Shown here piece after piece: positions 4,745 through 15,129 of a stretch of 51,251 nt of DNA. Location: contig CALBXO010000741.1 of assembly GCA_937890335.1 (NCBI GenBank), positions 1-51,251 of the forward strand, written 5' to 3'. The stretch is from an uncultured Pseudomonadota bacterium. Its GTDB lineage: Bacteria; Myxococcota_A; Bradymonadia; Bradymonadales; GCA-2716585. Under the pieces are notes generated by a model. It made no database searches. It worked only from the letters and a program-made list of their open reading frames with translations, and had not been told where the DNA came from. Position numbers and translations under genes: made by a program. The first letter of the stretch is position 1. The number at the start of each line of letters is the position of its first letter.

Positions 4745-5458
4745 TTACTCTGTGACGACCTGTCCGGACGCGATCGAAACGGGCTTCCACAGGGCGTCGG
4801 TGGAGGCCTCGTCGAGGCCGTTGTCCGCCACGTCGAGGTACGAGCAACGGTCCAGGGCGCCGCTGCCCGCAAGGTCGCTGGCCCCCTGCGACGAAAGCCC
4901 CACCGCCCTCAGGCCGAGCGTCGTCCACCCAGCCTTGTACCCAGCCAGGGCGCGGGCGCCGGCATCGCCGATGTTGTTTCCGTCCAGGCTCAGGTTGGTC
5001 AGAGCTGGCGGCGCCGTCGCGAGGAACGCGGCGAGCCCCTCGGCTGTGATGCCCGTCCGGGCCACGCTCAATGTACGCAGCTGACGAAACGTCGCCGCGC
5101 GCCCAAGGACCAGGAGGCCTTCGTCACCGATGGGACTGCCGTCGAGGGTCAGCGACGTCAGCATCGGCAGGTCGAGCGATCCGAGCGCCTCGATGCTGCG
5201 AGGTGTCAGCCTGTTGCCGGACAGATCGAGCACGTTTGTCGTGGGACCTACCGCACCACGGGACAATTGCCTGACAAACCCGTTGTCCTTGTACTTCTTG
5301 CCCGACAGGTCGACGCGGCGTCCGCGGCGAGAGGGGGGCGGATCATTGCGCGGCTTTTTCATTGCTGTGCTGTCCTGGGCGGCCGAGGGGAGGGGTGCAC
5401 TGGCGACCGTGAGGCCAAAGGCCGCCGCCACGGCCATTGCCGCGAGGAGTCCTCTCAT
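4745..5458 (-). CDS. Secreted leucine-rich-repeat protein (ribonuclease-inhibitor-type LRR)
   Basis: The Sec signal is MRGLLAAMAVAAAFGLTVASAPLPSAAQ. Repeats have the form LxxLxLxGNxIGDxGaxaLa (LTSLTLDGSPIGDEGLLVLG, LTNLSLDGNNIGDAGARALAG). The ATG at 5456-5458 abuts the stop (5459-5461) of the upstream DUF4157 gene. Confidence 0.85.
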   Translation of the reverse strand: MRGLLAAMAVAAAFGLTVASAPLPSAAQDSTAMKKPRNDPPPSRRGRRVDLSGKKYKDNGFVRQLSRGAVGPTTNVLDLSGNRLTPRSIEALGSLDLPMLTSLTLDGSPIGDEGLLVLGRAATFRQLRTLSVARTGITAEGLAAFLATAPPALTNLSLDGNNIGDAGARALAGYKAGWTTLGLRAVGLSSQGASDLAGSGALDRCSYLDVADNGLDEASTDALWKPVSIASGQVVTE

Positions 5459-13708: not shown

Positions 13709-15129
13709 GGCAGAGCCCCAACAAGCGCGTCAGCCGCTCGCTGCTCGCGGTTGGCGTCCTCGGTCGCGCCGAGCATCTCAAAGCAGCGAGCCCGCTGTGT
13801 CAGAGCGCGCGCCACGAGGCTGACGCGGCCGTCGGTCTGCGGCATCTCCGTCACCTGGAGCGCCGCAGCCCCGAGCTCCACCAGCGCCTCTTCGTAGCTC
13901 GCGAGCGTCAACAGGGTCCGCCCGGTGTGATACCGAACCAGCGCGTCCTCCGGCGCGGTACCCCGTGGGGTGGACGCCAGAAGCCGCAGGGTGGTCAGCG
14001 CGCCAGCTGGATGTTCAGCCTGCAGGTCGGACAGCGCGTAGTCGATGCCCAGCCTCAGCCAGCGCAGCCGCGTGTCCTCGGGGAGCTCCAGGAAGCGACT
14101 CCCAGCGACCAGAATGCGCCACTGCACCCTGTACGGAAGGCGTCCTGGATCGTCGGCGAGCACGCGCGCTAGCTGATCGAGAACCGCCGATGCGGGCGTT
14201 CGCGCCTCCACGAACTCAGCCAATGTTTCAGGGGCGGAGGCCCCCGAATCGATGCCCGACCAGCTCCATCGCTGGATTGCAGCTCGGTTCGCTCCGGCCA
14301 GGAGGGCCTTGGCTGCCAGCGTAAGCGCCAAATCATGGGCGCGCCCATCCGTCCGCTGCAAGCGTTCGGCGGCCGCGCCGGCGGCGTCGCGCAGCGCGGC
14401 TTCGTCCATCACAGCCCGTGCGGCAGTGTTCTCGGAGGCGGGTGGCTCCAACGACATCGTCGCGAAGCCCGGAAGCGGCACCCGCGCCGTGGCGAGGACT
14501 GGACATTGCGGGAGGTGGCGCAACCAGCCGGCCTTGTCGTGAGGATCGACCCCGTCGAGGACGACCAGCACACCCAGCTCCTCGCAGTGACGCCGGACAC
14601 GGCGAGCGCGGTCGGGCGCCGAAGTTTCCATGGGGGCAAAGAGGGCGGAAAACCACGCCGCCCACGCCGGCACAGGATCGGGCGCGCGCGCGTCCAGCCA
14701 GATCACGCCCCGACCCAGGGGCCGCCGCGCCAGGTGCCACGCGAGCGCGCTGGTCTTGCCCGCCCCTGCGGGCCCAACAATACAGCGCGGCTCAGGCGAG
14801 GCGTCCCGCAGAGCACGGTCCAGGGAGCTCCACGGCTCAGACTCCGGGGGCGCCGGGTAGACCGGTATGACGTCCTGCGCGCGCGGGCCGGGGTGGTCAG
14901 CGGGCAAGCCGGCCAACATGCGGAAGTCAGGGTCCGGCCGCCGGTGGGCCGACCAGAGCTCGCGGTCCGCCACGTCCAGAAACGCGAGCCGCACCGCGCT
15001 GAAACGCTCGACCGCGGACGTGAGCTCGGCGGGTGTCGACGTTCGACGCAACCCGGCGCCGACGAGCACCCGCGTCCAGATATGCGGCCCAGCTGCCGCC
15101 GCACGGTCCACCGCACGCCCCAAGTCCAT
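13705..15129 (-). CDS. STAND-type P-loop NTPase with a C-terminal helical-repeat (TPR-like) region
   Basis: Walker A is CIVGPAGAGKTS (nt 14752-14775) and Walker B is GVLVVLDGVD. The C-terminal half, about 250 aa, is Ala/Leu-rich and helical. The protein is 474 aa. Confidence 0.75.
   Translation of the reverse strand: MDLGRAVDRAAAAGPHIWTRVLVGAGLRRTSTPAELTSAVERFSAVRLAFLDVADRELWSAHRRPDPDFRMLAGLPADHPGPRAQDVIPVYPAPPESEPWSSLDRALRDASPEPRCIVGPAGAGKTSALAWHLARRPLGRGVIWLDARAPDPVPAWAAWFSALFAPMETSAPDRARRVRRHCEELGVLVVLDGVDPHDKAGWLRHLPQCPVLATARVPLPGFATMSLEPPASENTAARAVMDEAALRDAAGAAAERLQRTDGRAHDLALTLAAKALLAGANRAAIQRWSWSGIDSGASAPETLAEFVEARTPASAVLDQLARVLADDPGRLPYRVQWRILVAGSRFLELPEDTRLRWLRLGIDYALSDLQAEHPAGALTTLRLLASTPRGTAPEDALVRYHTGRTLLTLASYEEALVELGAAALQVTEMPQTDGRVSLVARALTQRARCFEMLGATEDANREQRAADALVGALP

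Follow-up and report, generated by a model that had tools for sequence, protein, structure and literature searches.

How can an ATPase and a cargo protein of the kinds that serve contractile injection systems (CISs) come to be encoded together, with no gene for the injection machine near them? This question is raised by a 51,251-nt contig from an uncultured Pseudomonadota bacterium (GenBank assembly GCA_937890335.1, contig CALBXO010000741.1; Myxococcota_A, Bradymonadia in the GTDB taxonomy), which was analyzed at its full length and is hereafter called the window. Between positions 4745 and 15129, it carries a cassette of nine genes, in which an AAA+ ATPase of the Afp15/Pvc15/Cis15 type is accompanied by an effector with a DUF4157 domain, a leucine-rich repeat (LRR) protein, a methyltransferase, two cysteine-rich proteins (Cys1 and Cys2), a P-loop nucleoside triphosphatase (NTPase), a tetratricopeptide repeat (TPR)-like protein, and a conserved protein of 145 amino acids (aa). 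The reading that we favor, at a probability of about 0.5, is that the cassette is a co-inherited auxiliary module derived from an extracellular CIS (eCIS), that it combines effector, loader, and immunity genes with lineage-specific genes for maturation and control, and that it most likely uses an injection machine in trans.

Inheritance and packing of the cassette

All copies of the cassette are on metagenome contigs; besides the window organism, the carriers are ERR3484140, ERZ24794645, and JGI 3300072015. When 185,579 species genomes were scanned with an alignment of the AAA+ family, 80 loci were returned, none closer than 48%, and no GTDB species representative was found to carry the cassette (the best AAA+ matches are 27-48% identical). 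The closest relatives of the window AAA+ protein are found on the P0002 contig (74% identity) and at locus L005 (64%), both of which contain all nine gene families in the order of the window. Between the window and L005, the identity of orthologous proteins ranges from 48 to 74%. The flanks of these two copies differ from those of the window, with a protein kinase gene in one case and PAP2/RelA-SpoT and metallophosphatase genes in the other. A fourth lineage, L090, also contains all nine families, in a rearranged order and with an effector that is ~45% identical. On one strand of L090, the methyltransferase gene overlaps the AAA+ gene by 4 nt; on the other strand, the TPR-like protein and the NTPase are encoded as one fusion of 952 aa, together with the effector, another paralog of the methyltransferase, Cys1 and Cys2, an LRR protein that resembles a lipoprotein, and the ~145-aa protein. 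Since the nine families have been inherited together across four lineages with unrelated flanks, we consider their juxtaposition to be functional, and the accidental neighborhood that the original prediction had allowed for is not what this comparison revealed. In addition, a large MmeI/Eco57I-type restriction-modification fusion gene lies ~5 kb from the L090 cassette (20494-22223 of that locus), a hint that this neighborhood is variable and island-like.

The nine genes do not form one indivisible system. Three distant effector homologs (36-38% identity) reside in minimal modules. More specifically, L101 and L091 encode a 183-aa protein, the AAA+ protein, the effector, and the LRR protein, flanked by an M3 peptidase gene and unrelated genes, and L099 encodes an AAA+ protein, the gene of which is transcribed divergently, the effector, and the LRR protein, followed by PrmC. 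The constant core is thus the AAA+ ATPase, the DUF4157 effector, and the exported LRR protein, which stand alone beside housekeeping genes in two further lineages, L091/L101 and L099. The methyltransferase, the two Cys proteins, the pair formed by the NTPase and the TPR-like protein, and the 145-aa protein make up the accessory set.

The nine-gene cassette is rare and tightly packed. Both the listing of open reading frames (ORFs) and gene calling based on the GC content of third codon positions (GC3) reproduced the nine genes at the coordinates first predicted. The same genes were called independently on four metagenome contigs that belong to the same organism. Over its 10.4 kb, the cassette is interrupted by three short gaps only (85, 20, and 20 bp). 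Direct reading of the junctions also recovered the predicted overlaps, i.e., a GTGA at 10600-10603 that holds the methyltransferase stop and the AAA+ start, and minus-strand ATGA overlaps at 13705-13708 and 13121-13124. The Cys1 and TPR-like genes meet at TGAATG, and the effector and LRR genes at TAGATG. At 9828-9847, only 20 bp separate the divergent starts of the Cys1 and methyltransferase genes (20-28 bp in two orthologous cassettes), so that either both promoters would lie inside the neighboring coding regions or the transcripts would be leaderless.

Effector, exported partner, and AAA+ ATPase

The effector (741 aa; 5459-7684, minus strand) matches PF13699 (eCIS_core/DUF4157) at residues 46-111 with 53.4 bits against a cut-off of 22, which confirms the domain assigned to it from the outset. 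DUF4157 was earlier described as PVC-metallopeptidase, a predicted releasing peptidase with an HExxHxxQ-E signature (Zhang et al. 2012, PMC3482391), and is a core domain of eCISs linked to toxins (PMC8213781). The protein consists of a short N-terminal region, DUF4157, a helical lysine-rich middle part, a C-terminal zincin-like domain, and a His-rich tail. This layout matches the order of N-terminal domain, DUF4157, and C-terminal domain in the cargo of AlgoCIS, in which the Alg15 ATPase reads the disordered N-terminus as a signal for loading (preprint 10.64898/2026.05.27.728243). In an alignment of six full-length effector homologs, the N-terminal region was variable, being ~45 aa long in the window and up to ~120 aa long and rich in Lys, Arg, and Gly in others. 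Among the members of the cassette, the effector is the best conserved (74% identity to its L005 ortholog).

The zinc-peptidase motifs that had been predicted were found only in part. The separate HExxH motif in the C-terminal domain is present, within a stretch (TLAHEWxHMIGxPDEYAE) that is invariant across the six homologs. DUF4157's own motif, in contrast, reads EEVTHVLQQ in the window and in L005, where the first His is replaced by Glu, and the window domain lacks the catalytic HExxHxxQ...E signature; four more distant homologs have HExxH at this site. Four of the six homologs also gave weak matches to an M6-metalloprotease domain (TIGR03296, E 5.5e-4), and sequence and profile searches of the effector against PDB yielded no significant match. 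The C-terminal domain is defined by its motif alone, since the AlphaFold2 (AF2) model of the effector was too poor for a fold search. A further short motif, C-x5-C-E-C-P-K-C-A, is located at the extreme N-terminus of the window effector (7625-7660, residues 9-20) and of the L005 effector; it follows the DUF4157 domain in three distant homologs (P0080-P0082) and is absent from P0079. From these positions, we would take it for a mobile mini-module that binds metal.

The LRR protein (237 aa; 4745-5458, minus strand; LRR_6 E 3e-14) has a hydrophobic N-terminus, in keeping with the secreted protein originally proposed. It is the only cassette protein with a signal-peptide-like N-terminus, which was seen in all four copies examined (window, L005, L090, and L091), and the L090 protein carries a lipobox-like LVLAC. 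Its gene lies directly 3' of the effector gene, abutting or overlapping it, in the window, L005, L090, L091, L099, and L101, i.e., in every locus with the 3' flank of the effector gene on record. A small partner gene immediately downstream of the effector gene and inherited with it is the layout of polymorphic toxins. Given this position and the signal-peptide-like N-terminus, the two genes have the layout of a toxin and its immunity gene, with a toxin that would act outside the cytoplasm, and the LRR protein most likely serves the effector as an immunity or partner protein in the periplasm. A DUF4157 cargo of a CIS has been reported to be active only if targeted to the periplasm (PMC12210884).

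The AAA+ ATPase (688 aa; 10600-12666, plus strand) contains a PF22977 winged helix (residues 56-160), a degenerate D1 P-loop (210-242, GPDGAGKR), and a classical D2 domain (PF00004, 466-588, E 3e-29; motifs GPPGTGKT and LILFDE), which is the Afp15/Pvc15/Cis15 architecture. Over 67% of its length, it is 35% identical (E 3e-55) to an ATPase of the Afp/PVC cluster on Serratia plasmid pELP1.10, the gene of which sits between the tape-measure and Pvc16 genes (position 15), and it is 27-48% identical to the ATPases of 45 loci embedded among CIS genes. Both the domains and the homology to a position-15 ATPase thus uphold the Afp15-like assignment. The window gene itself does not lie within a CIS operon.

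The original prediction had seen no injection-machine genes in the 51 kb, and the same result was obtained here with two sets of models. Our own hidden Markov models (HMMs) for Pvc16, the gp19 tube, the CIS tube, VgrG, gp25, PAAR, and Baseplate_J were built from related loci and checked against Pfam; with this set, in which there is no sheath model, none of the window ORFs of at least 70 aa was identified as a CIS structural gene. A Pfam scan of all large window ORFs detected no sheath, tube, baseplate, or spike family, and returned PolA, alpha-2-macroglobulin, PBP1C, TyrRS, RNase Y, and others. Hence, the sheath, tube, baseplate, or spike genes that would mark an eCIS locus do not accompany the cassette, and the Pvc16/Afp16 terminator is not found beside the ATPase (Pvc16_N is absent from the window). 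The available flanks of L005 and L090 contain no CIS structural genes, and the genes of the P0002 contig include no CIS Pfam family, the flanks searched ranging from ~2 kb (P0002 contig, the left edge of which cuts the effector gene) to 10 kb (L090). It had been considered that a canonical eCIS cluster might sit immediately outside the window; none of the four lineages has a CIS cluster adjoining the cassette.

A neighbor-joining tree, calculated from one alignment, placed the window AAA+ protein, its two orthologs, and 25 others in a single clade of 28 (bootstrap 184/200), which the original prediction had missed. Members of this clade come mostly from Myxococcota (Kofleriaceae, Polyangia, Nannocystaceae, and others); JACKFA01, DASTLB01, JADKKI01, and DASYDK01 are examples. 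According to our HMMs, CIS structural genes occur within 10 kb in 45 of the 84 ATPase loci and are lacking in the other 39. Pvc16 was found in none of the 27 clade loci, whereas most loci embedded among CIS genes have it, and eCIS_core is the only Pfam family that recurs among the clade's neighbors, with no structural family recurring. By sequence comparison, therefore, the window ATPase belongs to a previously undescribed, CIS-detached clade.

Several clade loci have further features of their own. In L007 (2829-13345), from a Kofleriaceae metagenome-assembled genome (MAG), the gene for a 2,316-aa protein with DUF4157 and a HopBF1-type kinase diverges from that for a 1,114-aa clade AAA+ protein, with a RES-domain gene close by and no CIS genes within 10 kb; clade ATPases likewise adjoin giant proteins in L033, L051, and L057. 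On the 9.8-kb contig of L012 (44-6347), genes for an Afp7-like LysM tube initiator and VgrG are followed by a clade AAA+ gene and then a DUF4157 gene, and this locus looks like an auxiliary spike-loader-effector module in the style of a type VI secretion system (T6SS). L008 (8760-13056) and L009 (8628-13056) encode a patatin-like phospholipase, a clade AAA+ protein, and an RsmJ-like methyltransferase, with no CIS genes nearby. There, the methyltransferase gene overlaps the ATPase gene by 4 nt, and this is a second, independent ATPase-methyltransferase coupling that involves a different methyltransferase family. Two MAGs each contain two clade-type loci, namely SMAG_U2472 (L018 and L019) and GL140_1_concoct_276 (L021 and L062).

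Accessory genes

The 251-aa protein encoded upstream of the ATPase (9848-10603, plus strand) matches no Pfam or NCBIfam family, and PADLOC gave no match of note (mad2, weakly). An exhaustive HMMER search assembled a family of 522 representatives. Motif I (VLDAGTGxxS) is invariant in 46 family members, 5 of which match Methyltransf_23. An AF2 model based on the family alignment reached a predicted local distance difference test score (pLDDT) of 96 and a predicted template modeling score (pTM) of 0.92, and Foldseek matched it to 724 PDB chains at E ≤ 1e-3, with template modeling (TM) scores of ~0.55-0.66. Every top-ranked chain among the matches listed is a methyltransferase dependent on S-adenosylmethionine (SAM) or has the same fold; the sequence and profile search of the family against PDB revealed only a weak match to a protein arginine methyltransferase (PRMT). 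Judged by its predicted fold, the protein is a class I SAM-dependent methyltransferase, so that the earlier call holds without a Pfam match. In the window, L005, the P0002 contig, and L090 alike, its gene overlaps the AAA+ gene by 4 nt, and we anticipate that the methyltransferase is translated as a unit with the ATPase.

Cys1 (335 aa; 8820-9827, minus strand) and Cys2 (195 aa; 13121-13708, minus strand) reach 24.5 and 23.7 bits against a PF03692 cut-off of 23, which sustains the predicted family by a narrow margin. Cys1 is composed of a lineage-specific N-terminal domain and a FliB-like Cys domain, and Cys2 is a paralog of its C-terminal part. Eight cysteines are invariant in eight family members (C-x6-C-x3-CC, then C-x-H, C, C, and C). 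The only characterized PF03692-type protein, FliB, is a SAM-dependent flagellin lysine methylase that also has eight conserved cysteines and whose CX4CX3CC motif binds an oxygen-sensitive [4Fe-4S] cluster (PMC8598068). Cys1 and Cys2 are presumably metal or Fe-S proteins; searches of PDB with the Cys family gave no significant match and no solved relative. In two true eCIS operons (L048 and L063), a Cys homolog is encoded between Pvc16 and an AAA+ or DUF4157 gene, and in L092 one has an AAA+ gene on either side and a DUF4157 gene close by. A metagenome scan with a three-member Cys alignment uncovered seven loci, among which L092 alone has AAA+ and DUF4157 neighbors, and other homologs of the family lie in unrelated contexts.

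The NTPase (474 aa; 13705-15129, minus strand) has a Walker A motif at residue 119 (GPAGAGKT), a Walker B motif at residue 188 (LVVLDG), and a helical C-terminal half. It had been predicted to belong to the signal transduction ATPases with numerous domains (STAND). Its Pfam matches remain below their cut-offs (AAA_16, 23.3 bits against 32.6; nSTAND5, 13.5 against 34), and a profile search of PDB gave nothing significant (Apaf-1, E 0.33; TPR of LapB, E 0.55). The motifs and the helical half are compatible with a protein that is STAND-like in layout only. Among 5.8 billion clusters, the search for homologs returned the NTPase itself and its L005 ortholog only.

The TPR-like helical protein (349 aa; 7770-8819, minus strand), probably a paralog of the NTPase, scores just below the TPR_12 cut-off (29.7 against 30.1 bits). 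It has no Walker A motif and keeps a Walker-B-like LVVIDN, and its L005 ortholog shows weak blastp similarity to the P-loop region of the window NTPase (E 8e-5). In L090, the TPR protein is fused to the N-terminus of the NTPase, from which we infer that the two act together. Given this fusion, the weak similarity, and a Walker B without a Walker A motif, the two proteins would seem to be a pair of an NTPase and a pseudo-NTPase. The remaining accessory gene (12687-13124, minus strand) encodes the 145-aa protein with the motifs GHTxGR and MYWAL, for which Pfam, NCBIfam, and PADLOC gave no family match; like Cys2, it has orthologs in L005, the P0002 contig, and L090.

The presence of the accessory genes goes along with a lysine-rich effector. 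Lysine makes up 11.1% of the window effector vs. 0.6-3% of the other cassette proteins of the same genome. Effectors encoded with accessory genes contain 10-13% lysine, and those of the minimal modules 1.8-4.8%. In the lysine-poor homologs, the lysines of the window protein are replaced mainly by Ala, Gln, Glu, Asp, or Gly, and not by Arg. A GC-driven shift between Lys and Arg was considered as the cause and rejected, since the remaining proteins of the cassette contain little lysine although their GC content is the same (~67% in the window) and since the replacements just described also speak against it.

Delivery, rival explanations, and relation to known systems

Under the reading of a module used in trans, the effector would be a toxin that acts in the bacterial cell envelope. 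The AAA+ unfoldase would recognize its N-terminal region and unfold or load it as cargo, and the LRR protein would guard the envelope of the producer. The six accessory genes would probably mature and control the effector before hand-over: the chemical step that we favor is methylation of the lysine-rich protein by the methyltransferase and the FliB-like proteins, and the NTPase/pseudo-NTPase pair might regulate this maturation. In favor of methylation are the methyltransferase fold, the 4-nt overlap with the AAA+ gene, the cysteine pattern of FliB, the lysine content of the effectors that have accessory genes, and the second ATPase-methyltransferase coupling in L008/L009. Delivery would most likely fall to a CIS encoded elsewhere. 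Since Halogeometricum secretes, in a sheath-dependent manner, DUF4157 toxins that are encoded distally with immunity genes downstream of them (PMC11566945), use of such a machine in trans is the most economical reading, and the coupling of Afp7/VgrG-like genes to a clade ATPase and a DUF4157 gene in L012 supports it.

A number of points weigh against this reading. No CIS structural gene lies near the cassette in any of the four lineages, and the same holds for 26 of the 27 clade loci; within 3 kb downstream of the ATPase, Pvc16 occurs in 0 of 25 clade loci vs. 23 of 53 loci outside the clade. Given this detachment, a CIS-independent function would fit the ATPase clade too. As for the effector, the zinc motif of its DUF4157 domain is degenerate (EEVTH), the putative C-terminal zincin is suggested by a motif and weak M6 matches, and the AF2 model of the whole protein, built from the six-sequence alignment, is poor (pLDDT 56, pTM 0.26). 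LRR proteins are not a classical immunity family. The NCBIfam FliB model did not match the Cys proteins even at E ≤ 10, so that the parallel with FliB is a lead and not a membership. Finally, the correlation between lysine content and accessory genes compares three with three related lineages, and the contigs with lysine-poor effectors are short, such that accessory genes may lie further away.

Among the alternatives, we take most seriously a toxin system that is independent of any CIS, in which an ATPase of the detached clade unfolds or activates the neighboring DUF4157 or giant toxin with no contractile particle, and the toxin leaves by lysis, outer-membrane exchange, or another secretion system, or undergoes controlled self-activation. 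The clade is well separated and almost free of CIS neighbors, some MAGs carry two of its loci, its ATPases adjoin giant proteins as if dedicated to them, and eCIS_core is the sole family to recur beside them. However, all characterized relatives of the ATPase and of the DUF4157 cargo work with a CIS, L012 retains VgrG and tube-initiator genes beside a clade ATPase, relatives of the CxxCxxCC proteins are found inside true eCIS operons, and the cassette has no conserved component for an alternative export route; we thus regard this explanation as rather unlikely. A more specific version, which we rate as improbable, is that the Myxococcota-centered clade has left the CIS altogether and that, in the cassette, the unfoldase threads the lysine-rich effector past the translationally coupled Rossmann methyltransferase and two FliB-like Fe-S methylases, with the NTPase pair as a gate; the product would be an envelope-acting metalloprotease with heavily methylated lysines, exported by another route. 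Such a pathway, if true, would be the first case in which the post-translational methylation of a bacterial toxin is coupled to an ATPase.

A similarly low probability is given to an intracellular conflict or anti-phage defense system, in which the STAND-like pair would sense an invader and license the AAA+ protein to release the metallopeptidase, killing or arresting the producer. The cassette does encode a P-loop NTPase, the C-terminal half of which is helical, as well as a pseudo-NTPase to partner it, the flanking genes differ from lineage to lineage, and the best NCBIfam and PADLOC matches of the AAA+ D2 domain are the defense ATPases IteA/IetA. These matches are at the level of the domain only, though (105 bits, with the cut-off at 510), none of the PADLOC systems was matched, the STAND assignment is unproven, and the cassette edges bear no marks of mobile elements. 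Of greater weight, the minimal modules do without NTPase genes and an exported, conserved partner is ill-suited to a cytoplasmic suicide toxin, and for these two reasons intracellular defense is less favored than either a CIS used in trans or a CIS-independent system. On the same grounds, of the two readings offered in the original prediction, the cargo maturation or loading module fits better and the NTPase-gated intracellular toxin less well. It is highly improbable that the cassette is an ordinary eCIS accessory region with its machine just outside the window, or an accident of position. Only 4.7 kb of sequence lie to the left of the cassette, which leaves some room for the former; yet this flank is housekeeping in nature (PolA and pyrophosphatase), 36 kb to the right are free of CIS genes, and so are the available flanks of the three other lineages (~2 to 10 kb), while nine families with overlapping reading frames are co-conserved down to 45% identity. 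Both possibilities are thereby largely refuted.

The surroundings of the cassette are as follows. On the left, polA (1928-4597) and, going outward, a pyrophosphatase gene were identified. The right flank begins with three tandem paralogs of ~190-220 aa (15378-17427, plus strand), membrane proteins with several hydrophobic segments and no Pfam match, which are probably unrelated to the cassette, since they are absent beside it in L005, the P0002 contig, and L090. They are followed by genes for a 1,940-aa bacterial alpha-2-macroglobulin and a PBP1C-type penicillin-binding protein of 806 aa (17508-25752, plus strand), a usual pairing for envelope protection. TyrRS, RNase Y, and a hybrid histidine kinase are also encoded in this flank, along with a cluster (39299-49441, plus strand) for a protein of 1,514 aa in which a MopE-type metal-binding repeat occurs 12 times, a TIG-domain protein, a protein of 1,008 aa that belongs to no family, and an outer-membrane beta-barrel protein, all of which are probably large surface proteins. 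The MopE-repeat protein and the nearest relatives of the ATPase would point to an origin in Myxococcota. There is no tRNA gene in the window and no integrase among the nine cassette genes. At the cassette edges, no flanking repeats beyond short matches and no promoter or terminator signals above chance were detected.

How cargo is chosen, prepared, and loaded in contractile injection systems is an open question that is relevant to the engineering of such particles. The cassette and its ATPase clade show that inheritance of a loader ATPase and DUF4157 cargo does not require machine genes in their vicinity, the two forming a unit of their own, and that this unit can bring its own probable immunity protein and, in some lineages, candidate modification enzymes. 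If it works in trans, it would represent auxiliary effector modules for eCISs, comparable to those of the T6SS; if it works alone, it would represent a new use of the Cis15-type ATPase family. In addition, a lysine-rich effector is here associated with a Rossmann methyltransferase and with FliB-type proteins, from which a directly testable hypothesis of toxin methylation follows; if true, it would place PF03692, a family that is poorly understood, in a second functional context.

The original prediction could match the cassette to no described system, and we came to the same result. PADLOC 2.0 detected no known anti-phage system, with the AAA+ protein matching IetA/TRIP13 at the domain level and the methyltransferase weakly matching mad2, and full-text literature searches found no description of the detached ATPase clade, of the AAA+/DUF4157/LRR trio, or of its coupling to the accessory genes. 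The components are of known kinds; the clade, the trio, and the coupling to a methyltransferase, FliB-like proteins, and an NTPase pair appear to be new.

The systems of the Afp, PVC, and AlgoCIS type share with the cassette the family and architecture of the ATPase (winged helix, degenerate D1, and classical D2) and the cargo layout of an N-terminal region, DUF4157, and a variable C-terminal toxin domain, and some true eCIS operons also include a CxxCxxCC accessory gene. Unlike them, the cassette lacks sheath, tube, baseplate, spike, tape-measure, and Pvc16 genes, its ATPase falls in a separate clade that is almost never found beside machine genes, and it adds a methyltransferase, a second Cys protein, an NTPase pair, the 145-aa protein, and an exported LRR partner. 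With the CIS of Halogeometricum borinquense (PMC11566945) and the auxiliary modules of the T6SS, it has in common that the genes for the effector and for a protective partner downstream of it lie at a distance from the machine, to be used in trans (as proposed for the cassette), and T6SS modules (VgrG-adaptor-effector-immunity) also place a dedicated helper gene beside the effector. In the cassette, however, the helper is a full Cis15-type AAA+ protein in place of a small adaptor and the partner is an exported LRR protein; moreover, no machine is known for its organism.

The resemblance to FliB lies in PF03692, the N-proximal C-x(4-6)-C-x3-CC motif, the eight conserved cysteines, and the location beside the gene of a protein that is rich in lysine and leaves the cell unfolded by way of a narrow channel, such export being a prediction in the case of the cassette. 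In contrast to FliB, the cassette has two paralogs and a separate Rossmann-fold methyltransferase, and its Cys proteins show no detectable similarity to the NCBIfam FliB model. Lastly, IetAS/IteAS and STAND defense systems resemble it in that a classical AAA+ protein accompanies a protease-like effector and a P-loop NTPase carries helical repeats. Here, the similarity is at the domain level and far below the family cut-offs, and the cassette differs in that it has no serine protease partner, its NTPase is dispensable for the core, and its partner protein is exported.

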